Virus record (IMG/VR): IMGVR_UViG_3300042398_001452
DNA from: a virus
Lineage: Duplodnaviria > Heunggongvirae > Uroviricota > Caudoviricetes
DNA length: 64,000 nt
Strand: one strand, 5' to 3'
Both the position numbers and the translations under genes were made by a program. Of the stretch, positions 13,634 through 52,626 are shown one piece after another; positions within the stretch are counted from its first letter, which is position 1, and every line of letters begins with the position of its first letter. The notes under the pieces are model-generated. The model saw only the letters and a program-made list of their open reading frames with translations, made no database searches and had not been told where the DNA came from.

Positions 13634-14137
13634 ATGAAACACATTAAATTATTTGAGGGATTCATGAAGAATCCAAATCCTTATAAGGACATAACAGAAA
13701 GAGGTGAGTCTGTTTTCTTATTCCACGAAGAAGATTCTATTTGGTTTGGAATATTTCCAGATAATGTTGCGGAGGATCTTAAATATGCTTCTGAAGATTA
13801 TATGAAACATGCAATATCTAAAGGTTTAGGAGAGGAATATTACGATGTTTTTGTTGACCGAAGAGAAGGACTAGCTTATGTTGAATGGGAAGGTAAAAAT
13901 GGATGGAATGCTTGTACCCCAGGAGAAATTGATGTAAACGATTATAATTATGTTATGATGCCAGATGGAACTGAAATAGAAATTAATCCATCTGCTAAAT
14001 ATTCATCTCTTCCTTTATTTGCTTTAGAAAGAGGAATGATAACACACTATCAAGGAAACCACGGTAATGAACCTATGACTGTTCGAGAATACATGGATCA
14101 TTTAGAAAGTGGAAAATCAGATTGGTATTCTATGTAA
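13634..14137 (+). CDS. leader-family protein (N-terminus MKHIKLFEGF), 167 aa
   Basis: Carries the conserved N-terminal decapeptide shared by 17 proteins in this window. EPM upstream. Confidence 0.65.
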   Translation: MKHIKLFEGFMKNPNPYKDITERGESVFLFHEEDSIWFGIFPDNVAEDLKYASEDYMKHAISKGLGEEYYDVFVDRREGLAYVEWEGKNGWNACTPGEIDVNDYNYVMMPDGTEIEINPSAKYSSLPLFALERGMITHYQGNHGNEPMTVREYMDHLESGKSDWYSM

Positions 14138-14157
14138 GAAATAAAATATATCTAAAA

Positions 14158-14182
14158 AAAGACCCTACAAGGGTCTTTTTTT
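14158..14182 (+). terminator. rho-independent terminator
   Basis: AGACCC-TACAA-GGGTCT plus T8. Confidence 0.75.
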
Positions 14183-14222
14183 ATGCTCCAAGGTTTACAG
14201 TAAACAGTCTACTGTAAACCAA

Positions 14223-14237
14223 CTGAGGAACCTCAGG
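14223..14237. repeat. PAL copy
   Basis: CTGAGGAACCTCAGG, where both arms changed (G to A with C to T) and the palindrome is preserved. Confidence 0.65.
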
Positions 14238-14287
14238 AAAATAGATGTAGAGAAGGATTACATCTATAACTACATCTATAACTATAG

Positions 14288-14333
14288 CGGGCTCCCCCGG
14301 GGGACGCGTGCGTACGTGTGCACGCGTAGGCAC
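14288..14333. repeat. GCH copy 4
   Basis: GGGCTCCCCCGGGGGACGCGTGCGTACGTGTGCACGCGTAGGCAC carries a perfect 8-bp hairpin ACGCGTGC-gtacgtgt-GCACGCGT. 5' of EPM 14345. Confidence 0.6.
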
Positions 14334-14344
14334 TTTTTTTCAGA

Positions 14345-14388
14345 AATCATTTTTTTATTTGTAGAAAATTCCATACATTAGCTATGTT
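14345..14388 (+). promoter_or_regulatory. EPM copy
   Basis: Upstream of the 14409 ORF. Confidence 0.6.
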
Positions 14389-14408
14389 AATCAATTAAAT
14401 ATATACAA

Positions 14409-14543
14409 ATGGAAAGAACAATCAATTTTATCGCTTGGAGCCTTATCACTGTTTTAGCTTCACTTACAATCTATGGTATACTTTACGCAGCTATACAGAT
14501 AGTTATAGGTAATGTACATTCAACAGCAAGCTTTGAATTTTAA
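14409..14543 (+). CDS. possible 44-aa membrane peptide
   Basis: ATG immediately after EPM copy 14345. Hydrophobic. Confidence 0.3.
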   Translation: MERTINFIAWSLITVLASLTIYGILYAAIQIVIGNVHSTASFEF

Positions 14544-14547
14544 AAAA

Positions 14548-14709
14548 AATGAAAACTGTAATAACAAAATCACAACTTCTTAAGATAGAATCCGGGAGAG
14601 TCAGAGAAGACCAGAAAGCCCAAGGTTTCTTCGATGGAAGATTTGTTACAAGAGCTCAAGATTCAAAAAAGAAATACTCCCGCAAGGAGAAGCACAAGGG
14701 CATCAACTA
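14548..14709 (+). CDS. possible 53-aa basic peptide
   Basis: Small ORF between the preceding peptide and the terminator at 14730. Confidence 0.3.
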
Positions 14710-14729
14710 AGAAACAAAACCCTATCTAC

Positions 14730-14757: not shown

Positions 14758-14786
14758 GTGCGAATCCAAAATCCCTCTTAATCATC

Positions 14787-14914: not shown

Positions 14915-14928
14915 AAACAATATCAATT

Positions 14929-15249
14929 ATGAAAAAGGAAATGACAATGGAACAAAAAGCAAAAAAAGCAGCAGCGAACAAAGCTTACCGTGAGCGTAAG
15001 AAAAACCAAGCGGCAACTCCGAATTGGATGGAATTGGATAAGTTCGAAATGAGTTTCACTCACAAAATTCGACTTTTCAAAAACCTCAAATTGGAAATCA
15101 CAAATTCCTACTGCGCTTCCCCTGGTACAGTTTTGAGATTTGAAAAAATTAAAAACGAAGATAATAAAATTATCTTTCGAGTACGCCGCACCGGTCGTCG
15201 CACCTTCTTCACCACCTCGACTAACCTACACGCACCAGTCGAGGCGTGA
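14929..15249 (+). CDS. member C of the 4-copy basic-protein paralog family
   Basis: MKKEMTMEQKAKKAAANKAYRERKK...RVRRTGRRTFFTT. EPM upstream. Confidence 0.7.
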   Translation: MKKEMTMEQKAKKAAANKAYRERKKNQAATPNWMELDKFEMSFTHKIRLFKNLKLEITNSYCASPGTVLRFEKIKNEDNKIIFRVRRTGRRTFFTTSTNLHAPVEA

Positions 15250-19100: not shown

Positions 19101-19571
19101 TCAATTACCTGTCCAGATAGGAATTATTTTAGCATCTGAAGGTATTATTCTCTTGTATTTATCTGAAATCTGTAGGATATCATATTTAGATATTAGTCTT
19201 TGAAGTGGTGTAGATTCGCCTGATTTATTTCTTCTAATCACATTAGAGAAAGCTTTCTCTGGATCATTTTCGAAGTACATTATTTCTAGTTCAGCCCCGG
19301 AATCTTTTATTTTTTTTATTGTTGAATATGGAATATCTGTATATAATCTATAATCAAACATTATAGGACCATCTGATATTATCTGATTTTCCATTCCTGA
19401 ATTTTCTAATGCTTTTCTAATCTGATTATCATCATAGATCTTATAATCCATATTAGGGTTTTCCATCTGTATTTTCTTAGCAAGATATGATTTACCAGAT
19501 CCAGGAAGACCTAGTATTAGTATAGTTTTCTTTTTGTTGGTGTATTCTTCAAAAAGTTTAATCCTTCTCAT
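19101..19571 (-). CDS. P-loop NTPase / nucleotide-kinase-like protein with N-terminal leader MRRIKLFEEY (156 aa)
   Basis: Walker A motif ILILGLPGSGKSYLAKK directly follows the leader. Confidence 0.7.
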   Translation of the reverse strand: MRRIKLFEEYTNKKKTILILGLPGSGKSYLAKKIQMENPNMDYKIYDDNQIRKALENSGMENQIISDGPIMFDYRLYTDIPYSTIKKIKDSGAELEIMYFENDPEKAFSNVIRRNKSGESTPLQRLISKYDILQISDKYKRIIPSDAKIIPIWTGN

Positions 19572-19629: not shown

Positions 19630-19746
19630 TGACCAATGGTTTGCCCTCCGGGCCTTAGATTTTTCTACAGTTCTTGTATGAGGCCCTGGGGGCCTTTAAT
19701 CTTAGATGGCTTTGGATTCTCTTTGATTTATGTGAATATATAATGT

Positions 19747-20862
19747 ATGAAACACCTTAAGTTATTTGAAGATTTTAATCCTTATGAGTATGAGCTTCCT
19801 AATTTCAGGGTAAGCCTAGTAAGTTCGGGCATGACTAACGGTAAATACCTTTTTAGCCTAGTTGATGGAGACGCCAATTCTTATTGGGGGATTTTCGATT
19901 TGGAAGGTCTTAAAGTCCTAGAGGATGAGATGAACACCATATGTGTCTTAGAAGAATTATTCAATGCTATAGCATACAACAAAAAAAATGATCCTGTTGT
20001 GTGGGCTACGAAAAAATGGACTAAACTTGTTATCAATAAGGTTCCAGAAGATTCTAAGCTTATTGTTCTTCTGAATAAGCTTGTGGTTGATAAAGACATA
20101 ATGGCGGATTGGGGGATTAGAAAAAATCTTAATATCTTAGGTGCTTTTCACGAATACATTGCAGATGTTGTCTCTGACGAGAATGAAATTCCAGAAGTTG
20201 ATTTTGGATTTTCGAAGGACGAGGGCATAATAATCGTTCCCGCTGAGGTGAACACTTTATACCATGAAGGAAACCATCTAGGAAGCTTCGATGACACCAC
20301 AGGGAAAATCATTAAAGACAAGAGAGATGAAAATTACTTTGCCATTGATTATGAAAACCCTTTAATGGTTAAACACGATAATAATTACACAGATCCTAAA
20401 TTCTGGAATGCTCCTCCTGATAACAAAGAATGGATTACTACCCCTATAAATTTTGATGACATAGAGCCTTATATGCCATCCATCATAGAAGGAGGAGCTC
20501 CTAAAGCATTTTTAAAGGTCATAGAAAAGTATAAGGGCATAAGAGACAGAAAGCCAACCATAAGAAAAATACCAACATTCATCGAAGGGGTTGAGAAGGG
20601 ACTTCTTAGGGATTATGGAAATGATTTAGAATTTAAGAAATTCCTAGAAGAGACCGATTACATTCAATTGGTGGACCAGATAGAGAAAGAAGAGACTAAA
20701 TTACGAAGAGAAAGATCACCGGAGAAATTATTGATCCTCAAATCCATATTGGATAAAAAAGAGGTGCTTATTAATTCATGGGAAGATAGACTTCCTATTG
20801 ACTTTATTAAAATGGAGAGAAGCGGTCTGGGTATAACCAGATTTAATTACGGTCTTAAATAG
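19747..20862 (+). CDS. leader-family protein (MKHLKLFEDF), 371 aa
   Basis: Track ORF. Leader decapeptide at N-terminus. C-terminus ..GITRFNYGLK loosely resembles the shared ..RF tail. Confidence 0.7.
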   Translation: MKHLKLFEDFNPYEYELPNFRVSLVSSGMTNGKYLFSLVDGDANSYWGIFDLEGLKVLEDEMNTICVLEELFNAIAYNKKNDPVVWATKKWTKLVINKVPEDSKLIVLLNKLVVDKDIMADWGIRKNLNILGAFHEYIADVVSDENEIPEVDFGFSKDEGIIIVPAEVNTLYHEGNHLGSFDDTTGKIIKDKRDENYFAIDYENPLMVKHDNNYTDPKFWNAPPDNKEWITTPINFDDIEPYMPSIIEGGAPKAFLKVIEKYKGIRDRKPTIRKIPTFIEGVEKGLLRDYGNDLEFKKFLEETDYIQLVDQIEKEETKLRRERSPEKLLILKSILDKKEVLINSWEDRLPIDFIKMERSGLGITRFNYGLK

Positions 20863-24898: not shown

Positions 24899-25490
24899 AT
24901 TTCAATCTATCTATTGGAAATTTATCAACAGAATATTTAGTTATAATAGCATTAGAGATATTTAGTCCTAATTCGTTATATATGTCTGTGATGTCTGTGG
25001 TTTTTGTGATAATCATTCCAGATTCTTGTGCTTTCTTCATTATGAAGTGATTGTATATTCTAGATCTTCTATCATCGCCTAGTGATTCTGATTTTGCAAC
25101 CACTATAATAGATATTAAGTTTCCGCCTTTACTTCTCTCTTTAGCCCATTCCTTTACCGCCCACCACACACTGCCCATAACATCTTGCATATTGTTTCTT
25201 CCTGTGAGCGAGTCTGAGTATTCTGTATCGGACGGATCAGCTTTAGACGAGAAATGTATTTCTAGAGTTACTGTGTTGTCTTCCCATCTTCTTACCAGAA
25301 TAAAAACTTTATATGGAGCTCCGTCTATTTCAAATTCATAGGTCATATCTTCATCCCTTGCTGGAATTTTGTTTATAACCTTGATGTCTGGGATTGTGTC
25401 CCACATCTCATTAAGAAACTGGTAGTATTTAAGAATTGATCTCATTCTTTTTATATATCGTTGTTTTTGATATATAGATATATGAAACAT
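24891..25490 (-). CDS. hypothetical protein (199 aa; alternative start at 25445 gives 184 aa)
   Basis: Track ORF on the minus strand, convergent with 24389..24898. Confidence 0.55.
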   Translation of the reverse strand: MFHISIYQKQRYIKRMRSILKYYQFLNEMWDTIPDIKVINKIPARDEDMTYEFEIDGAPYKVFILVRRWEDNTVTLEIHFSSKADPSDTEYSDSLTGRNNMQDVMGSVWWAVKEWAKERSKGGNLISIIVVAKSESLGDDRRSRIYNHFIMKKAQESGMIITKTTDITDIYNELGLNISNAIITKYSVDKFPIDRLKSI

Positions 25491-26555
25491 ATTAAATATT
25501 TCTCTGAGATCAATGAATCTAAAGAAGAATCAACAGAGATATTAGATTTTATAAAATCTTCACCAGAGGGTATTGATCTTTCTAGAATAAACGACAGGGG
25601 TACAGATATAAACAATATGTTTGAATTAGTAAGAACAGGGAGGGTATATTGTATTGGATTTGGCTCTAAAACTTATATAGATAAAAATCACAATGGAAAT
25701 TATTGCTGGCAAAGCCTATCTAACGGTAAGATATTTGCTCAAGAGTGCTATTCCACACTAAAAGAATGTATTAGAGAATTTTTTGTTACTGTGGTAAGTA
25801 GACAAATATCAGGAATGTATGGGGTTAAAAAGGAGGAAATGAGAAACTGGGTTTCTTCTAATATTCCTGTCGGTATGGGATTAACTATGTCTGATATAAT
25901 AGAAAAATATAAGGAATTAGAGGGAAAGAAAAAAGTGGATTTCTTAGAACTTTCTAAGGATAGTAGGGCTTTAAATATTATTGTTAATGCTTTTGGTGGA
26001 ATATTTGAAAAGCAACCTTATGATTATGACAGATATGACGAATACACATTAACTTTTAATATTTTTAAACCATTTGGGTTAGATATATGCGAATATGGTG
26101 ATAGAGCAAGACCTATTAGTGTCGTTATTAGAGCTGGTATGAAGGGAAAAAATAGCATTAAATCAGATTGGCACGGTGAGATTGTAAGTTTAGGAGATCA
26201 TGATACCGCTTTAAAATATTTCGATACTTCCTTACCTAAACTTCTAATTAATAAGTTATCAGGTAATAATAATAATGGGTATGGTTATTATATTCAGGGA
26301 GTAGATAATCTTTGTCCAGAATTATTGGAGTTGGTAAAATATATTTTTAGGGGAGATTATGATGTTAATAATAATCTTTCAGATATACTGGATTCATATC
26401 TTTCTAAAATTAAAACAAAAAATCCTATAATTTTTTCATCAGCAATACAATCATTAGAATCTAGTGGTAAATTCCCGGAATTGGTTGATAAGTATATTAA
26501 AAGCGATAAAGCTACTATCAAAGCAGGATCTATTTTAAAAAGATTTGAGCTTTAA
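25482..26555 (+). CDS. leader-family protein (MKHIKYFSEI) with shared C-terminal module (..SAIQSLESSGKFPELVDKYIK..KAGSILKRFEL), 358 aa
   Basis: Track ORF 25461..26555 trimmed to the ATG that begins the leader. The C-terminal about 40 aa align with 9030, 29417 and 31305 ORFs. Confidence 0.7.
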   Translation: MKHIKYFSEINESKEESTEILDFIKSSPEGIDLSRINDRGTDINNMFELVRTGRVYCIGFGSKTYIDKNHNGNYCWQSLSNGKIFAQECYSTLKECIREFFVTVVSRQISGMYGVKKEEMRNWVSSNIPVGMGLTMSDIIEKYKELEGKKKVDFLELSKDSRALNIIVNAFGGIFEKQPYDYDRYDEYTLTFNIFKPFGLDICEYGDRARPISVVIRAGMKGKNSIKSDWHGEIVSLGDHDTALKYFDTSLPKLLINKLSGNNNNGYGYYIQGVDNLCPELLELVKYIFRGDYDVNNNLSDILDSYLSKIKTKNPIIFSSAIQSLESSGKFPELVDKYIKSDKATIKAGSILKRFEL

Positions 26556-27100: not shown

Positions 27101-27913
27101 ATGAAATACATTAAACTATTTGAAGCTTTTTTAGCTAGTGATAATAAATCAACTATAATTTTATTTGGACCTCAAGGAGTGGGAAAAAGCACACTGGCTA
27201 AACAGTTAGGGAACGAGTTAAACATGGGAGTTATTGGCTCAGATGATTTTATAGATCAAGGGAATTGGTCAGCAGAGGAAATATGGAGTAAAGGATGGCA
27301 AGTTAGAAAACAAAATGAATATAAAGGAATGGTTAATTATCTTAATGATAATTTAGGTAAGCCTGTTATATTGGATGTTGGCGGTAGTCATGGAGTATGG
27401 GATGGAAAAATGCTAGAAGATATTATTGGTATGCTAGAGTCATATCCTAATAGATTCTTAATAATACCTTCTGAGAACGAAATAGAAAATCAGGAGTTTT
27501 TAAGAGGAAGATTATTAAAAAGGGAATTAGATATGCACCCTTCCAATATTAAATACTGGGAGGCTATTTTGAAGGGGGATACAAGCTTTGCAAAAGATTT
27601 TGATCACGAAAAAAGAAGTGAATTTTTAGAGAGAATAGAATTAGTAAAAAAAGAAGAAAAATATAGAACTATGGCTATGAATATGCTTAAATCTAGCCAG
27701 AATAGATATAACTCTCTAAAGAGAGGGGTTGAATGGATGGTGTATGATGATTCACCTGAACAAAAATTCGATTTTGAAATGAATAAGATGGAAGATTATT
27801 CAAAGTTCTTTATAGACACAATGAAAAATTCAGGGATAGCTAATCATATAATTTACAATAAAGAAAAGTCCTCTGATTTATTAGTTGGTGAAATAACAAA
27901 ATTATTAAAATGA
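27101..27913 (+). CDS. P-loop kinase-like protein with leader MKYIKLFEAF (270 aa)
   Basis: Walker A IILFGPQGVGKSTLAKQ after the leader. First 39 nt of this gene are identical to those of 27915..28637. Confidence 0.7.
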   Translation: MKYIKLFEAFLASDNKSTIILFGPQGVGKSTLAKQLGNELNMGVIGSDDFIDQGNWSAEEIWSKGWQVRKQNEYKGMVNYLNDNLGKPVILDVGGSHGVWDGKMLEDIIGMLESYPNRFLIIPSENEIENQEFLRGRLLKRELDMHPSNIKYWEAILKGDTSFAKDFDHEKRSEFLERIELVKKEEKYRTMAMNMLKSSQNRYNSLKRGVEWMVYDDSPEQKFDFEMNKMEDYSKFFIDTMKNSGIANHIIYNKEKSSDLLVGEITKLLK

Positions 27914-27914: not shown

Positions 27915-28637
27915 ATGAAATACATTAAACTATTTGAAGCTTTTTTAGCTAAAAAAAATCCAAGGTATAAAAAACCGGAATATGAATTTAAGGAGTTCTA
28001 TAGGGTTTTTAAGGGTTATCCCGAGTTAAGAGCTCTTCTCCCTTCTGATATTGATCAGGATGTATTTTCTATTAAATCAGACGGATTTGGTGGGGAACCT
28101 AAATGGTTAGATAAACACTTAGATCCACCTAGTAAGTCTGACGAGATCACTACTGATGCTCTTTTAAGAATAGCAGAAGAGATGGATCCAAGATTTGTTC
28201 CTCTTATTCTTTGGTGTTGTGATTTATTTGAAAAGGGTGAGATGGAGAAGATGACTTTAGATTATATACGTCCAAGATTAAGATCTGATTTTAAGAATCA
28301 CGATTGGGCGGAGTTAGAAAAAAATCCGGATCTTTTAGACCAATGCGAGAAAGAATACAATAAAGCAATTGATGTAGGATTAGATGATGATATTCTTAAT
28401 AATACAGAAGGACTTGTACAAGAGTATCCTGATATCACTATATGGAAGGCTCAATTCTGGACTTATGTTAAGGGATCAATAGCACATTTTAATCGTGTCG
28501 AAGCCAGCGGAGGTGAATTACCTTGTACTCAGTTTATATTGTATAGAGGTAAATATTACACTGTGGGTGGTAGAAGAAGAATGTTCTGGCACTTCTATAA
28601 TCATGTGGATCCTACTGTATGGATAATGGAATTATAA
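27915..28637 (+). CDS. leader-family protein (MKYIKLFEAF), 240 aa
   Basis: Leader is identical at DNA level to the preceding gene. Rest of the protein is unrelated. Confidence 0.65.
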   Translation: MKYIKLFEAFLAKKNPRYKKPEYEFKEFYRVFKGYPELRALLPSDIDQDVFSIKSDGFGGEPKWLDKHLDPPSKSDEITTDALLRIAEEMDPRFVPLILWCCDLFEKGEMEKMTLDYIRPRLRSDFKNHDWAELEKNPDLLDQCEKEYNKAIDVGLDDDILNNTEGLVQEYPDITIWKAQFWTYVKGSIAHFNRVEASGGELPCTQFILYRGKYYTVGGRRRMFWHFYNHVDPTVWIMEL

Positions 28638-28685: not shown

Positions 28686-29414
28686 ATGAAACATCTTAGA
28701 CCATTTAACGAAATAAACGAGCATTTAGGCGGAAAAGATATTAGTAGTATCGATAGAATGAAAAATAAATACCCTAAAGGTATAGAGATTCCTAAAGAAA
28801 TAAAAGCTACAGGATCTGGTAATTTCTCTATTGGCGTTGATTCGTTAGATCCTGAGTCTAAAAAATTCATGGAAATTGTCGAGATTATTAATGATCTATT
28901 ACAAAACTCAAAAGGAGATGTTAAAGTAAAAGTTAGCGCTGGTGCTTCTGCTGTAGGGCAGGGAAGATATGATAATCAGGGTCTTGCTGAAAGAAGAAGA
29001 GATAACACAATAGAGGCTCTTAAAAAATATCCTTTTATAGATCCTAAGAGAATTGTTTTTATACCAGGAAAAGCAACAGTCGGAAAATCAACAGTTAAAG
29101 GATCTAAAGAAGCTGAGGGTGAACAATATGTTATCGTTGAAGTTTCAGGAACTGGTAGTTTAAATGTTCCTATTACCGGTGTTCAGGGTGATAATACTAA
29201 TGTATATAGACCTGAGTTATTTAAATTTGACGGGAAGAAAAATAACAGCGATGACGACGACTTTGATTTTACTAAAACAAAGATAAAAAGAATATGTTTA
29301 CAGCTTCCTGAGCCTTATGTAGATAAATTTATCGAGATGCTAGGAAAATTCAGAAGGGATAATGGATTTGAAAAGATCCCTTATGGAATCTATGATATAG
29401 AGCCTAAGAAATAA
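28686..29414 (+). CDS. leader-family protein (MKHLRPFNEI) with OmpA-like peptidoglycan-binding-type motif, 242 aa
   Basis: VKVSAGASAVGQGRYDNQGLAERRRDNTIEAL resembles the OmpA_C core (G-x-T/A-D..G...YN..LS..RA..V). Confidence 0.55.
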   Translation: MKHLRPFNEINEHLGGKDISSIDRMKNKYPKGIEIPKEIKATGSGNFSIGVDSLDPESKKFMEIVEIINDLLQNSKGDVKVKVSAGASAVGQGRYDNQGLAERRRDNTIEALKKYPFIDPKRIVFIPGKATVGKSTVKGSKEAEGEQYVIVEVSGTGSLNVPITGVQGDNTNVYRPELFKFDGKKNNSDDDDFDFTKTKIKRICLQLPEPYVDKFIEMLGKFRRDNGFEKIPYGIYDIEPKK

Positions 29415-29416: not shown

Positions 29417-29989
29417 ATGAAATATATTAAGATTTTTGAATATTTCCCGCCTGATACAAAATTTGAGGTGGTTGAAAAATATCCAATGAATATTGAGAAG
29501 TTTTTTATCGATGCACCTTTTCAGGATTTTATTTCATTTATAAGTAAAAATTACCCAAAGAGTAGTTTTCTACATGCTTTTGTTAATTCTACCTGGGATT
29601 CCTACAATAAGGAAAAAATATTTATTTTATTGAGTCAATCTACACTTTGGTCTAAAAACGGTGTAATAGAATCTGAGCCAGTTGAAAGACTATTAGGTAT
29701 TACTATGTCTTACGATGGTAATATAAAAGCATCCGGATGGGACAATAATAAATTAGCAACAGACGAAGAACTAAATCAGGCTTCATCCGTTATATCTAAT
29801 AGTGGTTTAATGGATGAAAAACTTAAAGAGTATTTAGAAGAAGTAAGATCTAAAGATGCAGTATTATTTTCCCGTACTATTAACAAATTAGATACCAATG
29901 GAATTTTTCAAAATATTTCTAAATATTTTAAAGAGAAATATCCAGCTTTTTTTAAAGCAGGAAGTATACTGTCAAGATTTTCGAACTAA
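29417..29989 (+). CDS. leader-family protein (MKYIKIFEYF) with shared C-terminal module (..RTINKLDTNGIFQNISKYFKEKYPAFFKAGSILSRFSN), 190 aa
   Basis: Conserved at both termini. Overlapping start/stop with the upstream gene. Confidence 0.65.
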   Translation: MKYIKIFEYFPPDTKFEVVEKYPMNIEKFFIDAPFQDFISFISKNYPKSSFLHAFVNSTWDSYNKEKIFILLSQSTLWSKNGVIESEPVERLLGITMSYDGNIKASGWDNNKLATDEELNQASSVISNSGLMDEKLKEYLEEVRSKDAVLFSRTINKLDTNGIFQNISKYFKEKYPAFFKAGSILSRFSN

Positions 29990-30573: not shown

Positions 30574-31308
30574 ATGAATCATATTAAGTCTATAGAGGAA
30601 TTCATATTTGAAAAAAAGAATCCTTGTTGGCCGGGATACAAGCAAATAGGAATGAAAAATAAGAACGGTAAAAAAGTTCCTAATTGTGTAAAGGTTAACG
30701 AGCAGCTTTTTTCCGATGCTAGAAAGTTTTCACAAATGTTAGGTGTGGGAAATCAAGATTCTCAGCAAGCCCCGTATGTTAACACTCCTACTGGACCTAT
30801 ACAAACATCAAGAAACGATGAAGCATCCTGTCCTAATAATGATTGTTGGTCACACTTTGGTAAGGAAGCTTTTTGGAATGGCGACAGTAAAATAAATAAT
30901 ATAACAGTACCTAAAATTACAATACAAAAATCACCCACTCTTTTTAAAATAACATACAGTGGACAGGTATCGGGATTTTTATTAAAACATGCTAAAGGAG
31001 GAAAGGGTGATACTATACATCAATTATTAAATGTATTAACTCTAGAATTAAATGAATACCTGAAAGGAGTTTCTGCAAAACCAGATGTAAATAGAATAAA
31101 AATGACAAAATCTGGTAATGTATTGGAGATTGAAGTACCATTGGTTAGTGGGAATGGTAAAAAATATATGATAGCTAGAAGAGGAGGATTAGGTCACGGT
31201 GGTGATTTTACTGGACTTAGAAAATATAAAAAAATGGAGGGTTACGAAGAAGCTGTACATAAAAGCGAGAATCTAACTGAAAAGTTTGTAACTGTGGTTG
31301 TATCATGA
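30574..31308 (+). CDS. leader-family protein (MNHIKSIEEF), 244 aa
   Basis: Track ORF with leader at N-terminus. Confidence 0.65.
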   Translation: MNHIKSIEEFIFEKKNPCWPGYKQIGMKNKNGKKVPNCVKVNEQLFSDARKFSQMLGVGNQDSQQAPYVNTPTGPIQTSRNDEASCPNNDCWSHFGKEAFWNGDSKINNITVPKITIQKSPTLFKITYSGQVSGFLLKHAKGGKGDTIHQLLNVLTLELNEYLKGVSAKPDVNRIKMTKSGNVLEIEVPLVSGNGKKYMIARRGGLGHGGDFTGLRKYKKMEGYEEAVHKSENLTEKFVTVVVS

Positions 31309-32828
31309 GTAGGATAAAAGGATTTAGCAATTTTATGGATGAAGGGATATATTGGGAAACATTAAAAGAATCCTATAGACGTGTTAAAGGTGTAGCTGTT
31401 AAGGTTTTCAATGCTTTTAAGAATGAGGGGAAAGAAACTTCGGAGATGATGAGAGTTTTTAATTACCAGCTGAGAAAGAAATTAAAACTTGATACAAGAG
31501 GAGACAATCCAACACAAGAGGAAATTAATATGGCCTTAGAGCAATTAAAAGATATTCCAAGATTAGCTCCTTATGCAATTATTCTACTTTCATCACCTAT
31601 ACCTTTTTCGAGTGTTATGTATACTGCTTTAGGAGTATATCTAAAGAGGATAAGCGGGGGATATATAAATCTTCTACCAGGATCTTTCAATAATATATTT
31701 AATGATCCTATTAAGGACGAAAAAATAGATGAAAAAAATATGAAATTTTTAAAATACTTCCATTTATTTGAATCGAGTAATTGGAAATTTACTTTTCCTA
31801 AAACAGATTCTGAATTGAACTCTATGCTAGAAGGACCCGCTGGAAAAAGCCTAAGGGAAATAAAGCAATTTCCTGATGAAATGAGATATGGTACTCCTTC
31901 AATTAGTCAAGGAAAAAGTATACAAATTTGGTCAGGAGCGGGTTACAATCTTATAGCTTCACTTCAAGGAAATATAGTATATGGAACAATGAGAGTATAT
32001 CCTTCAGTGATGCCAGTTCACCAAAGCTTAGAGATACTTATTGACTTTCTAACAATTTATCTTTTCTGTATATCTAAAAGAATTACTTATCATTCAGTGG
32101 AGGAATTTGTTTATTTAGGTAAGCCTCTTAGTTTATCAATATACAATAAGTGTATTCCTAGACCTAAACAATTCGAGGTAATAATTGGAATTGCTAAAAA
32201 ATATAACGGGAATTCTAATATTGAATCCATTATATCTAAAATAAAATCTGATTCTGATAGCAATGTACCATTTAGCCAGGAAACCTTAAATAAGAGTAGG
32301 GCCTATAGATTTTTCGATGAGGTATTTAAATTTAGTATAGGAGATGATAATTCAGATTTTTATCAGATAAATGGCGAGTATTTTGTTCCCTTCGGTATAA
32401 AGGGGACAGGTCGCGATTATAACAGGGGTATGGTTATATACATTCCTAAGAATAAATTTAATTATAAAAAGGAAGATAATGCTATAAAATTTATAGATAA
32501 ACAAATAATAGATAAGGTAAGAGAAAATTTAAGATATAACTATCGGACTCTTAATTCAGATGAAAATGGAGAACTTATTAAAAATCTGACCGAAGCTTTA
32601 TTAGAAGTTTATAATAGTGGAACGGAATTATTATATAGTGGTGGTGATTTATATAGTAGAATAAGAGATATATTAGATTCTGTAAGATTAAAAAATCCGG
32701 TATTATTCTCTGAATTTTTACAAGGACTATCCAATATAGCTGAATTTAAAGAACTAGCAGATGAATATATCGAAAAATATCAATCTTCTTTCAGAAGTGG
32801 TAATATATTAAGTAGATTTAGAAAGTAA
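31305..32828 (+). CDS. large leader-family protein (MSRIKGFSNF) with shared C-terminal module (..FRSGNILSRFRK), 507 aa
   Basis: Conserved at both termini. C-terminal ..SEFLQGLSNIAEFKELADEYIEKYQSSFRSGNILSRFRK aligns with the other tails. Confidence 0.7.
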   Translation: MSRIKGFSNFMDEGIYWETLKESYRRVKGVAVKVFNAFKNEGKETSEMMRVFNYQLRKKLKLDTRGDNPTQEEINMALEQLKDIPRLAPYAIILLSSPIPFSSVMYTALGVYLKRISGGYINLLPGSFNNIFNDPIKDEKIDEKNMKFLKYFHLFESSNWKFTFPKTDSELNSMLEGPAGKSLREIKQFPDEMRYGTPSISQGKSIQIWSGAGYNLIASLQGNIVYGTMRVYPSVMPVHQSLEILIDFLTIYLFCISKRITYHSVEEFVYLGKPLSLSIYNKCIPRPKQFEVIIGIAKKYNGNSNIESIISKIKSDSDSNVPFSQETLNKSRAYRFFDEVFKFSIGDDNSDFYQINGEYFVPFGIKGTGRDYNRGMVIYIPKNKFNYKKEDNAIKFIDKQIIDKVRENLRYNYRTLNSDENGELIKNLTEALLEVYNSGTELLYSGGDLYSRIRDILDSVRLKNPVLFSEFLQGLSNIAEFKELADEYIEKYQSSFRSGNILSRFRK

Positions 32829-32837: not shown

Positions 32838-33410
32838 ATGGTAAGATTATTAAAATTTGAATCTTTTCTAAATGAATCATCAAATTCTGTGATAGATCTA
32901 GTTAAGGATTTAGCTATAAGATTACATGGAGATCAGAAGAGAAAATATAGCGGTGATCCTTATTACACACATCTCTTTAGAGTTTCCGATACTGTTAGAG
33001 AATACGGAGGCGATGATTCTATGATTATGGCAGCCTTGTTACACGATGTTATAGAAGATACACCAACAACAGACGAGGAGCTTATCTTAGAATTAGAAAC
33101 AATAGTAGATCCACAAATGGCTAGGGACATTGTTAATTTAGTTGTTGAATTAACTGATGTGTATACGAAGGAAAATTTTCCAGATTTAAACAGAAGAGCT
33201 AGAAAAGAAATGGAAGCCAAAAGACTTGGAGAGATTTCTTCTAGAGCACAAACTATAAAATATGCAGATCTTTTAGATAACGGTGAGGATATAATGAAGA
33301 ATGATCCCTCGTTTGGTAGGGTTTATATCAAGGAGAAAGAAAGAATACTTAATTATATGAACTTTGGCGATAGGACATTATATAATAAGTGCTTGGATTC
33401 AATATATTAG
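32838..33410 (+). CDS. HD-domain (p)ppGpp-hydrolase-like protein (small alarmone hydrolase-like) with leader MVRLLKFESF, 190 aa
   Basis: LHGDQKRKYSGDPYYTHLFRVSDTV...MIMAALLHDVIEDT matches the Rel/SpoT HD hydrolase core (H..Q.R.SG.PY..H...VA......D....AALLHDv.EDT). Confidence 0.75.
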   Translation: MVRLLKFESFLNESSNSVIDLVKDLAIRLHGDQKRKYSGDPYYTHLFRVSDTVREYGGDDSMIMAALLHDVIEDTPTTDEELILELETIVDPQMARDIVNLVVELTDVYTKENFPDLNRRARKEMEAKRLGEISSRAQTIKYADLLDNGEDIMKNDPSFGRVYIKEKERILNYMNFGDRTLYNKCLDSIY

Positions 33411-34621: not shown

Positions 34622-34828
34622 GTGAATAAAATTATGGGTTTTAACGAAGATTTTTTTTATCATGTGTATAATGAAGTTCATGAGAAAGATATTTCTAATG
34701 AGTTTTATAAACAGCTGGACAAAATGAAGTATCAGGATAAGCATAAACATAAAACTGTAAAAGAACAATGGGAATATGCTTATTTAAAAATTATCAATAA
34801 TAAAAATGAAGCACATAAAACTATTTGA
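34622..34828 (+). CDS. hypothetical protein (68 aa)
   Basis: Track ORF. End overlaps the start of the next gene. Confidence 0.4.
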   Translation: MNKIMGFNEDFFYHVYNEVHEKDISNEFYKQLDKMKYQDKHKHKTVKEQWEYAYLKIINNKNEAHKTI

Positions 34829-35309
34829 AAACTTTGATTCGATTAACGAGTCAGAATTTATTGCGGGAGACTATAAGATGTCAGCAACAAAGGACGGAGA
34901 AATACAAGTTGTTGACTCTGCTAATAATAAAACTTATATCTACCTTGTTAGCGCAGGTATGGTTGGTATAAAGGTTAAGGATTTCCCCGAAGGAAATTCT
35001 ATATTAGTTACCGCTTTAGGTAAAAGTATAAAAAGCCCTTTGTCTAAGGACGGATCAACTATAAAAGCAATTAAGGATAATATAGGAAAATCAAAAATAA
35101 AATTTGAACTTCCTGCTGCTTCACTTACTTTAAGCTGTAAATCAGGTTGTGATAAAGGAGCAGAGAACGTTGCAAATATTAAAATATCTAAAGAGGAATT
35201 TGATATCGATTTAGATGATATTATAGATACAGCAAAAGATGCAGGTCACAATATTATTAAAGCAGTTGAAGGCGGTGCAGAGAAACTTAAATCGCTCCTT
35301 AAGTGGTAA
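34806..35309 (+). CDS. leader-family protein (MKHIKLFENF), 167 aa
   Basis: Track ORF with leader at N-terminus. Confidence 0.65.
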   Translation: MKHIKLFENFDSINESEFIAGDYKMSATKDGEIQVVDSANNKTYIYLVSAGMVGIKVKDFPEGNSILVTALGKSIKSPLSKDGSTIKAIKDNIGKSKIKFELPAASLTLSCKSGCDKGAENVANIKISKEEFDIDLDDIIDTAKDAGHNIIKAVEGGAEKLKSLLKW

Positions 35310-45615: not shown

Positions 45616-46017
45616 ATGATGAGATATATAAAACTTTTTGAATCGTTTGATCAAGTAAATGAAGCCGAAGGAATTTCGGAAGATTTAATATTCGATTGGC
45701 TACCTTTTGATGATCAGATAAATAATCCAGTAAATTCTAGAGTACCTATTGAAGTTAAATATTCTGAACTTGCTCAAGTTTGTAATGAGATGGGAAAAGA
45801 CTTTAATGGTGTTGGTCTTTATATAGCTCACCAGAAACTAAGTGATGGCGGATTTGTTAGATTCGTAGTAGGAAACCCTTCACCAGTACTTTTTGACGTA
45901 GCAGTATTTGACAGAGAATTTAAGAAGTCTTCAGAACAAAAAGGCATATCAGCTGATAAATTTAATTTCAAATCATATTTAAGAGGAACAGAAATTCTTA
46001 ATAGATTCAAATTTTAA
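45616..46017 (+). CDS. leader-family protein (MMRYIKLFESF), C-terminus ..GTEILNRFKF, 133 aa
   Basis: Leader and an ..NRF tail. Terminator at 46039. Confidence 0.65.
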   Translation: MMRYIKLFESFDQVNEAEGISEDLIFDWLPFDDQINNPVNSRVPIEVKYSELAQVCNEMGKDFNGVGLYIAHQKLSDGGFVRFVVGNPSPVLFDVAVFDREFKKSSEQKGISADKFNFKSYLRGTEILNRFKF

Positions 46018-48147: not shown

Positions 48148-49410
48148 CTATTTCTTTTTAAAAAAATCCTTCCAATCAACTTCCACTGGGGAATATCCAG
48201 AAGCTACTAATTTTCTAACTTCCTGTAGAGCTTTATCTGTAGAGCTTCCTTTTTTGTAAAGTCTATCCCAAGATCCGTCTTTTTTCCTACTCTGATTGTT
48301 CATTAGATCTATAGCAGTTACAGCTCCCTGTGCATTTGGATTTTTACCAACTAATTTTTTAATAGATTCCTTTTGCTTCCATAATGTTTCCTGTATAATA
48401 ACCGTCCACTTATTAGCAACAATAGTTTCTGCATTTTTTATAACATATTTAGGATCTTTATATTCTTCAGGTACTGCTATATCAAGTCTGTCGCCTATGT
48501 TCATTATTTTTACTCCGGTTTTTCTTTCTTCGTATCTTCCAGAATAATATGACTTTATTTTTTTAAATCCTAATGTTGGTAATACTCCAGTAATAGCACG
48601 CATATCGAAAAGGGTAGATCTAACCGTATGTTGTGTACAGTTAGAAAAAAGAAGATTGTAACTTTTATTGCTAGCTCCTATTACTGCAGTTGGTACATCC
48701 TTAACCTTTTTTTTCGCCCAATCACCAACTATTTTTTTAAAGTTGTCGTATTCTTTTTTGTTCATTTTTATTACGACTGATTGTTTTTTGAGATGATTTA
48801 ATTCGGAGCATACTTGATTATACATTGTTTGAGAATACTCTGGGTATATCTTTTCCCCTGTTTTAGTATCACCAACACCACCTAAAAGAACTTTATCTAT
48901 ATCAGCTTTCTCGGGCATTGCATTTATTTGATATTTAGGCTCTTTTAAAGACCAAGCTTGTAGGTGACCGAATCCTCCTCCTGCATCTTTTTGGCCCATC
49001 TCGAAGTAATCAACTACTACCGGATACTGGAACTCTTTTTTAGCATACGCCTTAATTTCTTGTTCCATTGGCATATCAGTTTCTGTGTTGTACCAATTAC
49101 CTCCCCAAACAAAATAATTACATCCTTGTTTTTTAGCTGCTAAGAAAGCTTCCTTTCTAGTTTTTTTGGATGACATATTACAAGATTTCCCTTGCTTTAT
49201 TGAATTGTAATAGAAATCTTTTAATATTCCTTTTCCCCAATTAAAAGAATCGTCGCCTTTCTTTTTTAAATTGGAGACGGTTTTTTTCCCTGTATCCAAA
49301 AGCTTATTTGCAAAATCTTTATAATCATCAAAATTCCAATATTCATTTATATCTTCACTAGATGATTCACTGATATTATTCCAATCTTTAAAAGATTTAA
49401 GATGCTTCAT
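48148..49410 (-). CDS. leader-family protein (MKHLKSFKDW), 420 aa
   Basis: Track ORF on the minus strand with leader at N-terminus. Confidence 0.7.
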   Translation of the reverse strand: MKHLKSFKDWNNISESSSEDINEYWNFDDYKDFANKLLDTGKKTVSNLKKKGDDSFNWGKGILKDFYYNSIKQGKSCNMSSKKTRKEAFLAAKKQGCNYFVWGGNWYNTETDMPMEQEIKAYAKKEFQYPVVVDYFEMGQKDAGGGFGHLQAWSLKEPKYQINAMPEKADIDKVLLGGVGDTKTGEKIYPEYSQTMYNQVCSELNHLKKQSVVIKMNKKEYDNFKKIVGDWAKKKVKDVPTAVIGASNKSYNLLFSNCTQHTVRSTLFDMRAITGVLPTLGFKKIKSYYSGRYEERKTGVKIMNIGDRLDIAVPEEYKDPKYVIKNAETIVANKWTVIIQETLWKQKESIKKLVGKNPNAQGAVTAIDLMNNQSRKKDGSWDRLYKKGSSTDKALQEVRKLVASGYSPVEVDWKDFFKKK

Positions 49411-49415
49411 TTATT

Positions 49416-49631
49416 TTAATCATTTCTTCTCATTTTAGCTAGGTTTTTTCTAACAGAAGAATCTAGATCGTCGAATGTTCTTTTTAGGCCCTTATCATAA
49501 ATATTAGATAATGATCTAGCAACACTGTTTTGCTCCAGTATTATTTCCCATTTAGGATCTTTCTCTTTGTTAATAATCTCCTCTGCTATCTCTCTCCCCA
49601 TTTCCTCAATTTTCTTTTCGTATGTTTTCAT
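49416..49631 (-). CDS. hypothetical protein (71 aa)
   Basis: Track ORF. Confidence 0.5.
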   Translation of the reverse strand: MKTYEKKIEEMGREIAEEIINKEKDPKWEIILEQNSVARSLSNIYDKGLKRTFDDLDSSVRKNLAKMRRND

Positions 49632-49656
49632 AATATTTCTATCAATAAAATGCTTT

Positions 49657-49971
49657 TTATTTCATTTGATTATATATTTTTTCCAGTTCATCAAATATTA
49701 ATTCCTCTGGATATCCATCATCTATTGATGTTTCTATAGCATCACTTATAAGGGATATGTATTTATATTCATCGCTTTGTCTATGAAATTTAGATTGATC
49801 AGCCCATCCTTTGTAGTGATTTAATATTTCTTTTATCATATTTTTTATAGCATATGGATCTGCTCCCATAGCTAAAGCATTGTTTATCTTATTAGAAATA
49901 GTAGTATAAGGGTCTTCTGATCCTGGATGAAATTCGTATAATCTCAAGAAATCTGTATATTTTTTTATCAC
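49657..49971 (-). CDS. hypothetical protein (104 aa)
   Basis: Track ORF. Confidence 0.55.
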   Translation of the reverse strand: MIKKYTDFLRLYEFHPGSEDPYTTISNKINNALAMGADPYAIKNMIKEILNHYKGWADQSKFHRQSDEYKYISLISDAIETSIDDGYPEELIFDELEKIYNQMK

Positions 49972-50026
49972 TTCTTATATATCTGGAAATAAATACTGTT
50001 TTATTACTATAATTAATAAAAATAAA

Positions 50027-51007
50027 ATGGTAAAGAAAAAAGGACCCATATGTATGTTTATAGAGAGAAACTATAAACACTTTAATGCAGCTGCCTTAAA
50101 AGATGCAGCTATAGGATACGAAAAACATATAGATAGCGGAGGAAAGATGCTCGTGTCTCTAGCAGGTGCAATGAGTACAGCAGAGCTTGGTATTTCACTT
50201 GCTGAAATGATAAGAGAAGGAAAAATTGATATAATATCTTGTACAGGAGCAAACTTAGAGGAGGATTTAATGAACCTAGTAGCTCACTCTCACTACAAGA
50301 GAATACCTAACTACCGCGATTTAACTCCTCAGCAAGAAAGGGATCTTTTAGATAAGGGACTGAATAGAGTTACAGATACATGTATACCCGAGGAAGAAGC
50401 TTTTAGAAGACTACAGACCCACATATATGATATTTGGAAAGAAGCTGAAGATAAAGGAGAAAGATATTTTCCGCATGAATACATGTACAAATTAATCAAT
50501 AGTGGAATACTAGCTCAATATTATGAGATAGATCCTAAGGATTCTTGGATGATTGAAGCAGCTAAAAGAAATCTACCGATGGTTGTTCCTGGATGGGAGG
50601 ATTCAACAATGGGAAATATATTTGCTTCTTATGTTATTAAAGGTGAACTAAAAGCTGAAACAGTTAAAAGTGGTATAGAGTATATGGTAGATCTTAGCCA
50701 TTGGTACAGAAATAATTGTTCACCGATGGGTGTCGGTTTCTTTCAAATAGGAGGGGGAATTGCTGGGGATTTTCCTATATGTGTTGTTCCTATGATGTAT
50801 CAGGATCTTGAATGGGAGGATGTTCCTTTCTGGTCTTATTTCTGTCAGATCTCTGATTCGACTACATCATACGGTTCTTATTCAGGAGCAGTACCAAACG
50901 AGAAGATTACATGGGGAAAATTGGATGCAGATACACCAAAATTTGTTATTGAGTCCGATGCAACAATAGTTGCTCCTCTAATGTTCGCTTGGATATTAAA
51001 TAAGTGA
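50027..51007 (+). CDS. deoxyhypusine synthase-like / homospermidine synthase-like NAD-dependent aminobutyl transferase, 326 aa
   Basis: KIDIISCTGANLEEDL (cf. DHS V-D-V-L-V-T-T-A-G-G-V-E-E-D-L), FFQIGGGIAGD, and C-terminal GAVPNEKITWGKLDADTPKFVIESDATIVAPLMFAWIL (cf. DHS [35 protein letters not shown]). Confidence 0.75.
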   Translation: MVKKKGPICMFIERNYKHFNAAALKDAAIGYEKHIDSGGKMLVSLAGAMSTAELGISLAEMIREGKIDIISCTGANLEEDLMNLVAHSHYKRIPNYRDLTPQQERDLLDKGLNRVTDTCIPEEEAFRRLQTHIYDIWKEAEDKGERYFPHEYMYKLINSGILAQYYEIDPKDSWMIEAAKRNLPMVVPGWEDSTMGNIFASYVIKGELKAETVKSGIEYMVDLSHWYRNNCSPMGVGFFQIGGGIAGDFPICVVPMMYQDLEWEDVPFWSYFCQISDSTTSYGSYSGAVPNEKITWGKLDADTPKFVIESDATIVAPLMFAWILNK

Positions 51008-51102
51008 TTTAGGATATATAAACAGTGAAATGTATCTTAGTATTATGTGTTGTAACCATATTAACAATACCTATGGGATACATACATCTAAATAAACAAA
51101 AA

Positions 51103-51840
51103 ATGAGGCATCTAAAAAGTATAGAAGAATTTAAAAAAGTAAATGAGCAGTTATTTAAAAGCGAAGGATCTTTTTTTAATAAGATGTTAAATCTAGGAGA
51201 CACAAAGAATGATAATACAGCATCCGCGGGTGGTACAGGTTCTTCTTCAGGTTCTTCTTCAGGTTCTACTGGAACTATAGACAATAAAGTCGATATATCA
51301 GATTATGGAAAATTCAGTGAGGCTAAGGACAAAAAAGCTCCTTTAGTAGTTGTATATGGTGGAATAGATGTTGGTGGTAAGAAAAGTGGCGTATATATGT
51401 ATGACTATTTAAATACCCTAGGAAATTCAGTAAATTTGTTTGTAGCTAAAGATGCTAGTATTAACGGAAAATCTGCATATACATCTTTAAAAAATAAATT
51501 ATCAGATCTATCAATAACACCATCTAAAAAGATATTATATCTTTTCTCCGGAGGATGGAGTCCAGGTAAAGATCTATTGAGCTCTGTTTCTGCATCTGAA
51601 TTTGATACAATATACCTAGTAGATATATGGATGGGTAAAGATGCTTCTTCTAGTTTTTATAAAAAATTAGCAGCAGACAACAGAAGCAAAGTTAAGTATT
51701 TCTACACTAGCTTTGGTGCTAATGATAAATCTGCTAGCGATGCAATTATTAAGACAGTAAACACTTCTAAATTAAATGGAAATAACGATCATATGTCTAC
51801 TAACACAGATGCAGTTTCAGATTTAAAAGGAATAATATAA
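51103..51840 (+). CDS. leader-family protein (MRHLKSIEEFKKVNEQLF) with Gly/Ser linker, about 245 aa
   Basis: Track ORF 51025..51840 trimmed to the leader ATG. Shares EQLF after the leader with the next gene. Confidence 0.6.
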   Translation: MRHLKSIEEFKKVNEQLFKSEGSFFNKMLNLGDTKNDNTASAGGTGSSSGSSSGSTGTIDNKVDISDYGKFSEAKDKKAPLVVVYGGIDVGGKKSGVYMYDYLNTLGNSVNLFVAKDASINGKSAYTSLKNKLSDLSITPSKKILYLFSGGWSPGKDLLSSVSASEFDTIYLVDIWMGKDASSSFYKKLAADNRSKVKYFYTSFGANDKSASDAIIKTVNTSKLNGNNDHMSTNTDAVSDLKGII

Positions 51841-51849
51841 TATAAAAAA

Positions 51850-52626
51850 ATGAAGCATTTAAAAAATATAAAGGAGTTCGGATTGGTTTACGAGCAGCTA
51901 TTTAGTCAAGAGCTTGCAGCATTTAATAAACTTATGGGTATATCTGTTGAAGAAACAGGAATGGCTGAGCCAAATATGATTTCAGCTGAGAACCCTTCCG
52001 GATTAGGAACTGCTCCAGTATCTGTTGTTAAACTGAACACTAATCAATTAGATAATTACGGATCTACTGTTGGGATAACAGAGAAGGGAGACTCTTCCAG
52101 CTTAAACCAGCCATCAAGGGGTCCTTTAGGAAATATAGTAAACTCAGCTTATGCAAATTTAAATGTTTCAACAAGAAGAATCCCTGGAACAATGGGGGGA
52201 AATCTTGGATGTGCAGCTGCTGTTTCTATTATATTTTACAGAGCTACTGGATATGCAATAGCAGGATCAGGAGCTATAACTTTGGGAACTTCAAGTATGT
52301 GGAGCCACATGGATGCAGAAAGCAAAAAATCCGATGGAGTTTGGCAAAAAATAACTAATTGGAAAACAGATTCTCAGCCTGGTGATATAATATTAACATC
52401 TAGAGCAACTAAAGCAGGACACGTGGGAGTTGTAGTAGAGGGAGGAAATATTATATCTAATTCTTCTGGAGGGTTTCAAGGAGACAGAAAAGGTCAAATA
52501 GAATTAAATTATAATCTAAATACTTGGCAAAGCGTAGCAAACAGAAATCCTACACAAACAGCATCTTTTAGATATAGAGGTCCTTACAAATCAACATGGG
52601 GTAAAGAACAAGCTCCGATAGCATAA
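51850..52626 (+). CDS. CHAP-domain (cysteine/histidine amidohydrolase-peptidase) protein with leader MKHLKNIKEF, 258 aa
   Basis: GNLGCAAAVSIIFYRATG (catalytic Cys context) followed by GDIILTSRATKAGHVGVVVEG (catalytic His context), matching the CHAP/NlpC-P60 topology. Confidence 0.7.
   Translation: MKHLKNIKEFGLVYEQLFSQELAAFNKLMGISVEETGMAEPNMISAENPSGLGTAPVSVVKLNTNQLDNYGSTVGITEKGDSSSLNQPSRGPLGNIVNSAYANLNVSTRRIPGTMGGNLGCAAAVSIIFYRATGYAIAGSGAITLGTSSMWSHMDAESKKSDGVWQKITNWKTDSQPGDIILTSRATKAGHVGVVVEGGNIISNSSGGFQGDRKGQIELNYNLNTWQSVANRNPTQTASFRYRGPYKSTWGKEQAPIA

Follow-up and report, generated by a model that had tools for sequence, protein, structure and literature searches.

A shared N-terminal leader on 17 diverse phage proteins is a candidate capsid-targeting propeptide

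The IMG/VR virus record IMGVR_UViG_3300042398_001452, analysed here as a single stretch of 64,000 nucleotides (the window), contains 17 open reading frames (ORFs) whose products open with a common leader, M-(K/R)-(H/Y)-(I/L)-K-x-F-E-x-F. We propose that this leader is probably (at a probability of roughly 0.6) a capsid-targeting propeptide like that of phage T4, and we infer from this that the tagged proteins are docked, cleaved, packaged and ejected into the host. The principle is known from T4. New here are the leader itself, which is distinct and longer, the finding that a lineage of uncultured T4-related jumbo and huge phages carries it, the number and enzymatic variety of the tagged proteins, a conserved family of leader-bearing proteins in the head module and an associated promoter box. 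More tentatively, and at somewhat less than even odds, we suggest that the leader is a capsid label that can be read from sequence on dozens of proteins per genome, that it marks the largest enzyme-rich injected repertoire known, and that it shares ancestry with the T4 signal.

Seventeen window proteins open with a common leader

A common N-terminal decapeptide on 17 proteins had been proposed in an earlier reading of the window (the original prediction), and the observation was borne out by translation of all 17 starts, among about 117 callable ORFs, and by comparison with shuffled sequence. A relaxed peptide pattern found 17 Met-initiated matches in the window and none in 30 Markov shuffles. 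The same pattern without the Met found only five further matches, against about 2.8 expected by chance, which indicates that the motif is specific to N-termini. For a degenerate DNA pattern there were seven exact matches in the window as opposed to none in 100 dinucleotide shuffles. The ORF at 45616 opens MMRY, the motif proper beginning at 45619. The starts at 25482, 44517 and 51103 are ATGs within longer TTG- or GTG-initiated ORFs, and these internal ATGs are likely the true starts. The 17 genes are listed below with the length of the product in amino acids (aa), its opening residues and, where present, the distance in nucleotides (nt) to a promoter-like box that is described further on.

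13634..14137, plus strand: 167 aa, MKHIKLFEGF; no known domain; GATATATA box 24 nt upstream
19101..19571, minus strand: 156 aa, MRRIKLFEEY; P-loop kinase-like (AAA_33/Zeta_toxin, weak hits)
19747..20862, plus strand: 371 aa, MKHLKLFEDF; no known domain; GAATATATAA box 4 nt upstream
25482..26555, plus strand: 357 aa, MKHIKYFSEINE; C-terminal domain in common with 29417 and 31305; box 5 nt upstream
27101..27913, plus strand: 270 aa, MKYIKLFEAF; P-loop nucleoside triphosphatase (NTPase)/kinase-like
27915..28637, plus strand: 240 aa, MKYIKLFEAF; no known domain; first 12 residues identical to those of 27101
28686..29414, plus strand: 242 aa, MKHLRPFNEINE
29417..29989, plus strand: 190 aa, MKYIKIFEYF; C-terminal domain in common with 25482 and 31305
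30574..31308, plus strand: 244 aa, MNHIKSIEEFIFE; box 4 nt upstream
31305..32828, plus strand: 507 aa, MSRIKGFSNFMDE; C-terminal domain in common with 25482 and 29417
32838..33410, plus strand: 190 aa, MVRLLKFESFLNE; HD_4, (p)ppGpp-hydrolase-like
34806..35309, plus strand: 167 aa, MKHIKLFENFDSINE; leader-bearing orthologue in relative locus L080
44517..45179, plus strand: 220 aa, MRAIKTFENF; box 5 nt upstream
45616..46017, plus strand: 133 aa, M-MRYIKLFESFDQVNE; box 16 nt upstream
48148..49410, minus strand: 420 aa, MKHLKSFKDWNNISE
51103..51840, plus strand: 245 aa, MRHLKSIEEFKKVNE
51850..52626, plus strand: 258 aa, MKHLKNIKEFGLVYE; CHAP-like peptidoglycan hydrolase (borderline Pfam hit)

The description of these proteins as otherwise unrelated stands for most of them once the leader is removed. 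The exceptions are the products of 25482, 29417 and 31305, which alone share a C-terminal domain (32–36% identity), and the two kinase-like proteins, which have only the P-loop in common. Of the enzyme activities that had been assigned to them, one HD_4 hydrolase was recovered; the two P-loop proteins gave weak Pfam hits as NTPases or kinases, with their P-loops at about residues 17–25; the CHAP match scored 24.2 bits against a Pfam cut-off of 26; and no OmpA-like domain was found among the window leader proteins. Most of them had no match in PHROGs or Pfam. They range from 133 to 507 aa and from 4.4 to 9.5 in isoelectric point (pI). The leader does not show the features of Sec, Tat or lipoprotein signals (a hydrophobic core of at least 10 residues after a basic N-region, a twin arginine, a lipobox). 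A signal peptide was rejected, the leader being charged and amphipathic (MKHIKLFExF-NE) and followed by acidic linkers and soluble domains.

The leader is conserved as a peptide and carried as a module

Conservation at the level of the peptide had been predicted, and synonymous codon choice in 139 non-redundant leaders, compared with the rest of the same genes, agrees with it. The ratio of AAA to AAG was 82–91 : 9–18 in the leader and 77 : 23 in the background, that of TTT to TTC 74–85 : 15–26 and 76 : 24, and that of GAA to GAG 87 : 13 and 81 : 19. Amino-acid replacements within the leader are conservative (I/L/V, H/Y, F/Y), and the sequence 5′ of it is just A-rich, apart from the optional 8-nt box. 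Background-level synonymous variation combined with conservative replacements argues for selection on the peptide. Conservation at the DNA level, as expected of a mobile promoter or translation cassette of the T4 PeSL-like kind, was rejected because synonymous sites vary at background rates.

The relation of the leader to the protein that carries it is best seen in the HD protein (32838-33410). This protein has hundreds of homologues, of which those that are 60–70% identical are 176–185 aa long, start at the first HD helix and are without the leader; an N-terminal extension of 13–15 residues is found only in the nearest relatives. AlphaFold2, run on the alignment of HD proteins, modelled the domain with a predicted local distance difference test score (pLDDT) above 95 and residues 1–17 with a pLDDT of 49–69, placing a short helix at residues 5–11 and a linker after it. 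The leader is a detachable, modular add-on tag. A common folded domain in all 17 proteins, which had been named in advance as the finding that would speak against targeting, did not materialise. We rejected the leader as part of such a domain on the basis of the leaderless HD homologues, the position of residues 1–17 outside the confident fold, and P-loops that begin at about residue 17.

The leader is frequent in viruses and almost absent from cells

Scanning IMG/VR with the degenerate pattern yielded at least 158 leader-initiated ORFs at no fewer than 120 loci on more than 100 viral contigs. Among the matches listed, nearly all lie directly 3′ of an in-frame stop, and the contigs that carry them are AT-rich (22–46% guanine plus cytosine), reach 482 kb and often hold several copies, with 11 copies in 9 kb at locus L100. 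By comparison, 596 Gb of bacterial and archaeal genomes, scanned in full, returned just 101 pattern matches. These are mostly chance matches, being short ORFs or internal hits; about 20 look genuine and lie on AT-rich metagenome-assembled contigs, mostly binned as Bacteroidota. The near-absence from cellular genomes indicates that the leader is not a property of host proteomes, and on the same ground a general feature of the host or of translation was rejected.

Several positions that the search pattern does not force are nevertheless conserved, namely L/T at position 6, I/V/L at 11, N at 12 and E at 13, which gives the fuller consensus MK[HY][IL]K[LT]FExF[IVL]NE. At positions 11–13 the motif [ILVM]-x-E occurs in 59 of 140 leaders (42%), compared with 1.8% per position in the remainder of the proteins; in the window it ends at residue 12–15 in 10 of the 17 leaders. 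A profile search of a collection of 5.8 billion proteins with the leaders alone returned just 30 candidates and was uninformative. A 41-nt leader consensus matched only noise in GenBank, apart from the huge-phage records LR756502 and LR756504, and a literature search found no description of this leader. The closest cultured phages are the Tenacibaculum phages PTm1 and pT24, and no leader was present in the head module of PTm1 or in the first 50 kb of pT24.

One locus carries the leader twice in a single frame. In L036 (~7199-9388, minus strand), the leader MKHFKTFESFVNEG stands in frame at the end of an ORF of about 650 aa that is itself leader-initiated, an arrangement for which a sequencing error, fusion by read-through and a polyprotein are all conceivable.

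The window belongs to a lineage predicted to build a T4-type prohead

No GenBank phage was close to the window, and in JGI metagenomes its DNA was found on short contigs only. The window Dda helicase is 80–99% identical to genes on IMG/VR contigs of 29, 86, 116, 206 and 248 kb, and these relatives of up to 248 kb point to a jumbo phage of about 200–250 kb. The hosts are probably Bacteroidota. Across the leader-sampled loci (at least 120), the genes that neighbour leaders include SbcD/gp47-like, clamp loader, UvsW-like helicase, primase, PolB and gp23-like capsid genes. The gp23-like capsid protein of the carrier contigs is closest to those of huge metagenomic phages (60%), followed by Prevotella Lak phages (40%) and Tenacibaculum phages (33%).

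A walk along a window relative led to a conserved 341-aa gene that ties the window lineage to a contig with an S77 head module (66% identity, shared gene order), and the capsid protein of that contig then recovered L429, the 248-kb relative whose Dda helicase is 80% identical to that of the window. L429 encodes a 677-aa Peptidase_S77 (gp21-family) protease with a long scaffold-like tail (38.7 bits, cut-off 27, E 9e-10) and a Gp23-family capsid protein (E 7e-39); in L111 and L045 the head protease is likewise a Peptidase_S77. The S77 protease–scaffold fusion and the Gp23 capsid gene of L429 indicate a lineage that is predicted to build a T4-type prohead.

Some leader genes lie within head modules

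We sampled 119 head modules by the protease motif FTYD[LI]VADPGF, that is, independently of the leader. Directly upstream of the protease, 44 of these modules encode a conserved acidic protein of 112–125 aa that is itself leader-initiated. Its N-terminus reads MK(I/H/Y)IKTFE(D/E)F(I/V/L)(S/A)E(D/E)A and its C-terminus is an acidic tail ending EEDPLAGL (loci L233-L351; an example is L323 5671-6006). The small acidic protein forms 447 clusters in the collection of 5.8 billion proteins, matches nothing in Pfam or PHROGs and is a new and previously unnamed conserved family. It resembles T4 gp67 and gp68, whose genes lie between those for portal and protease, in standing directly upstream of the protease, and it resembles gp67 further in its strongly acidic C-terminal tail. 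Unlike the small head-module protein, gp67 and gp68 do not open with the T4 targeting sequence.

Other head modules place leader genes similarly. Three of the leader-sampled loci include a capsid gene: the order is portal, leader gene, protease and capsid in L111; protease, two leader genes and capsid in L045; and leader gene and capsid in L110. In the huge-phage record LR756502, located by capsid homology, the portal gene is immediately preceded by two leader-like genes. Among 80 loci that were sampled by the capsid protein, the three genes downstream of capsid fitted a leader-like pattern (a generic N-terminal ‘aromatic-x-x-aromatic ... [ILVM]-x-E’) in 104 of 149 cases, as opposed to 112 of 807 other ORFs, a difference whose p-value (9e-43) overstates independence because the families are homologous. 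The post-capsid genes open MKRIKRLEEFESLNE and MRITKIKDFVLEQE in the relative of the window and MLKHIKKLEEFPLFE and MTLKFKEWDSLNE elsewhere. None of the portal, protease or capsid genes listed opens with the leader, and the conserved replication gene clusters in the sampled loci have no leader-bearing members. Most leader genes lie outside head modules, in accessory regions.

A promoter-like box precedes head genes and some leader genes

A GA(T/A)ATATA(A) box lies within 45 nt upstream of the start in 96% of cases for protease genes, in 94% for portal genes and in 59% for the small head-module genes, compared with 30% for other genes; it probably serves these phages as the promoter of late or head genes. 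Its positions in the window are as follows.

13602, 19735..19742, 25469, 30562, 44504 and 45592, plus strand: boxes ahead of leader genes
20963, 21856, 26561, 42484 and 46721, plus strand: further boxes, among others

The spacing of box to ATG is often 4–5 nt or about 16–24 nt, the former seen also at the small head-module gene; a spacing of 4–5 nt implies that the predicted transcripts would be nearly leaderless. The box is absent from PTm1 head genes. Within the window it precedes 6 of 17 leader genes and 6 of 100 others (p 0.002). That leader genes are late genes as a general rule was nonetheless rejected, since the wider sample of loci gave p 0.12.

The leader may correspond to the T4 signal at its targeting and processing positions

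The internal proteins of T4 are a diverse set with nothing in common but a capsid-targeting sequence, by which they are loaded into the scaffolding core (PMC3012670). That signal is MKTYQEFIAE and is cut once by gp21 (PMC8442874). Residues 4 and 7 are the main determinants of targeting, residues 8 and 10 those of processing (PMC9026906). A change at position 10 that blocks cleavage still permits targeting (PMC9026906), so that uncleaved cargo is conceivable. The best alignment with the leader is offset, with T4 K2-T-Y-Q-E-F-I-A-E10 set against K5-(T/L)-F-E-x-F-(I/V/L)-x-E13. This brings T4 Y4 and F7 onto the near-invariant F7 and F10, and T4 I8 and E10 onto [ILV]11 and E13; one head-module member reads KTFEDFIAE where T4 has KTYQEFIAE. 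The Glu at residue 8 (LFE), after which cleavage had originally been predicted, does not hold up in this better alignment, from which the likely cleavage site would be an [ILV]-x-E ending at about residue 13–15. The capsid-targeting claim itself is strengthened by leader genes in the head module, by a lineage with S77 protease and gp23-type capsid, and by the modular and virus-specific nature of the leader; it is the position of the cleavage site that needs revision.

The two systems have in common a short N-terminal tag on otherwise unrelated proteins; a phage with a scaffold, a gp23-type capsid protein and a protease of the gp21 family; hydrophobic or aromatic residues three apart (Y4 and F7 in T4, F7 and F10 here), followed, here in part of the copies, by [I/L/V]-x-E; and cargo that is interchangeable and varies between relatives (PMC3012670, PMC9026906). 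They differ in the three extra N-terminal residues of the leader (M-K-H/Y-I), in the presence of a cleavage-type site in just ~40–60% of leader copies, and in that the phages described here, which are known from sequence alone, probably infect Bacteroidota and have genomes of at least 200 kb. A second comparison is with the phiKZ-like giants (phiKZ, 201phi2-1, SPN3US), which also load many proteins, enzymes among them, into the head and whose prohead protease is related to gp21 and cuts after Glu. The conserved N-termini of the diverged SPN3US paralogues gp53 and gp54 have been read as targeting signals (PMC5694885). The phiKZ-like propeptides differ in being mostly longer than 100 residues and protein-specific, with the cleavage motif (A/S/G)-x-E, and these phages have no single short leader across dozens of unrelated proteins.

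A model for cargo loading, and the evidence against it

As a capsid-targeting propeptide, the leader would form a short amphipathic helix whose F7 and F10 dock the protein onto the scaffold core of the prohead, the scaffold probably consisting of the long C-terminal part of the protease–scaffold fusion together with the small acidic leader proteins. Tagged proteins would be enclosed as the gp23-type shell forms, the S77 protease would cut after the Glu of [ILV]-x-E where such a site is present, and the cargo would stay in the head and enter the next host cell with the DNA. The cargo encoded in the window would comprise two kinase-like NTPases, an alarmone-hydrolase-like HD enzyme, a CHAP-like wall hydrolase and 13 proteins of unknown function, and new cargo could be recruited by fusing a tag of about 13 residues to a gene.

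Several observations weigh against this proposal. Seven of the 17 window leaders lack an [ILVM]-x-E after F10 and have only the L-F-E at residues 6–8, which lies inside the presumed docking motif. The similarity to T4 spans about nine residues, too few for common descent to be demonstrable statistically, and the small head-module family has no detectable similarity to T4 gp67 or gp68 (hidden Markov model E >0.1). The cargo is unlike the small, basic internal proteins of T4 in its size (133–507 aa), its range of pI (4.4–9.5) and its recognisable enzymes, and 17 cargo genes in 39 kb, with more in the flanks, would be an unusually large load. In at least 120 leader-sampled loci the box preceded 26 of 175 leader genes (15%) and 122 of 1139 others (11%; p 0.12). 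The 64-kb window contains no head genes, these being seen only in the relative with 80% helicase identity, and of the four head modules of huge phages that were examined, those of LR756500, LR756504 and LR756501 are without a leader gene. No isolate with the leader turned up when proteins were searched with a leader protein or the small head-module protein as query, and no virion proteome of a leader-bearing phage was found.

Other explanations of the leader

The best-surviving alternative, which we regard as unlikely, is that the leader is a docking helix for a partner other than the prohead, such as a compartment built by the phage, a hub protein of the host, a chaperone, or a complex for secretion or lysis. 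A detached, modular amphipathic helix on functionally diverse enzymes would suit such a partner, as would the location of most leader genes in accessory regions outside the head modules and the lack of late-promoter enrichment in the broad sample. What docking of this kind leaves unexplained is why leaders occur on conserved genes between those for portal, protease and capsid, why they frequently have the Glu-type ends typical of gp21-family proteases, and why they match the T4 signal residue by residue at its targeting and processing positions.

It is decidedly improbable that the leader is an N-terminal degradation tag that times the removal of accessory proteins through Clp-type proteolysis involving the phage’s own ClpP. 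Some N-terminal recognition motifs of ClpX do have a Met-basic-hydrophobic form, and the window encodes both ClpP and a transfer-messenger RNA (tmRNA). Against this, among the loci examined ClpP clusters with the window’s own clade only and not with other leader contigs; no gene for a ClpX or ClpA unfoldase or for an adaptor was seen; host proteomes do not use the motif; and a degradation tag would be unexpected on conserved head-module proteins.

Least probable of all is a functionless peptide encoded by a DNA or RNA cassette for expression or recombination (an initiation region or a homology patch for gene shuffling), for although the box ends just 4–5 nt before the ATG in a subset of genes, so that the mRNAs would be almost leaderless, and the neighbours 27101 and 27915 are identical over their first 30 nucleotides, synonymous positions are at background frequency while the amino acids are conserved, the leader persists where an internal cistron overlaps the stop codon before it (27915, 29417, 31305) and at other spacings, the box lies 4–5 nt upstream of just ~20 of 138 leaders, and the conserved replication gene clusters of the same loci have no leader-bearing members.

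Implications of a packaging signal

Should the leader prove to be a packaging signal, it would become possible to predict from sequence and from metagenomes which proteins are injected by an uncultured phage lineage that includes some of the largest phages known. The tagged proteins would then be candidates for a ‘first strike’ on the host (an alarmone hydrolase, kinase-like NTPases, a wall hydrolase and many unknowns), to which related contigs may add methyltransferase-like and nucleotidase-like tagged proteins, as judged by eye from N-terminal sequences. T4-style targeting would widen from a few small basic proteins of T-even phages to a general means of recruiting cargo, and, if the ancestry with T4 is real, capsid targeting would be an ancient trait of head assembly of the gp21/gp23 type. 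As a ready-made label of 13 residues, the leader could also be used to load foreign proteins into phages of Bacteroidota.

Other features of the window and its relatives

Further features of the window are given below.

5725-6597, plus strand: sigma-70-family factor, regions 1.2 to 4
11528-12307, plus strand: M28 peptidase
23446-23866, plus strand: tmRNA; ARAGORN and Rfam RF00023 agree (92.7 bits, full-length); predicted tag ends ...AEEAELLMAA
36820-37722, plus strand: Band_7 (stomatin-like) protein
41416-42279, plus strand: sigma-70-family factor, regions 1.2 to 4
50027-51007, plus strand: deoxyhypusine synthase family protein (PF01916, E 1.5e-41), between leader genes
54482-55078, plus strand: HNH/NUMOD4 homing endonuclease
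56659-57231, plus strand: ClpP homologue (PF00574, E 8e-28), adjoining the Dda helicase and away from head genes
60680-62305, plus strand: PAS-domain histidine kinase (PAS x2 + HATPase_c)
62298-62729, plus strand: response-regulator-receiver-like ORF (N-terminal sequence only)

The ClpP gene is kept in all five relatives of the window, and its presence alongside the tmRNA suggests that the phage may interfere with host proteolysis. The sigma factor at 41416 opens MRQLKIT, as does Bacteroidota RpoD; a third sigma-like gene lies just beyond the window in a relative (L355 7838-8713, minus strand, N-terminal sequence only). The histidine kinase and the adjacent receiver-like ORF would be a phage-carried two-component system, and the pair is duplicated or rearranged in relatives.

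The 341-aa protein mentioned above, of unknown function, was found at L356 10001-11023 and at 66 further loci (L357-L422), with 45–83% identity across at least 67 viral contigs. After its gene come a conserved gene of 355 aa and, a few genes on, a thymidylate-synthase-like gene (N-terminal sequence only); the 341-aa gene is a useful marker for the phage lineage. The left part of the window contains two small paralogous families, both on the plus strand: one at 8054-8359, 11083-11394 and 14929-15249, with the N-termini MKKEMTAEQKAKKAAANKAYRE, and a second at 3778-4278, 4305-4793 and 9594-9959, with the N-termini MKKGELERVEGII.

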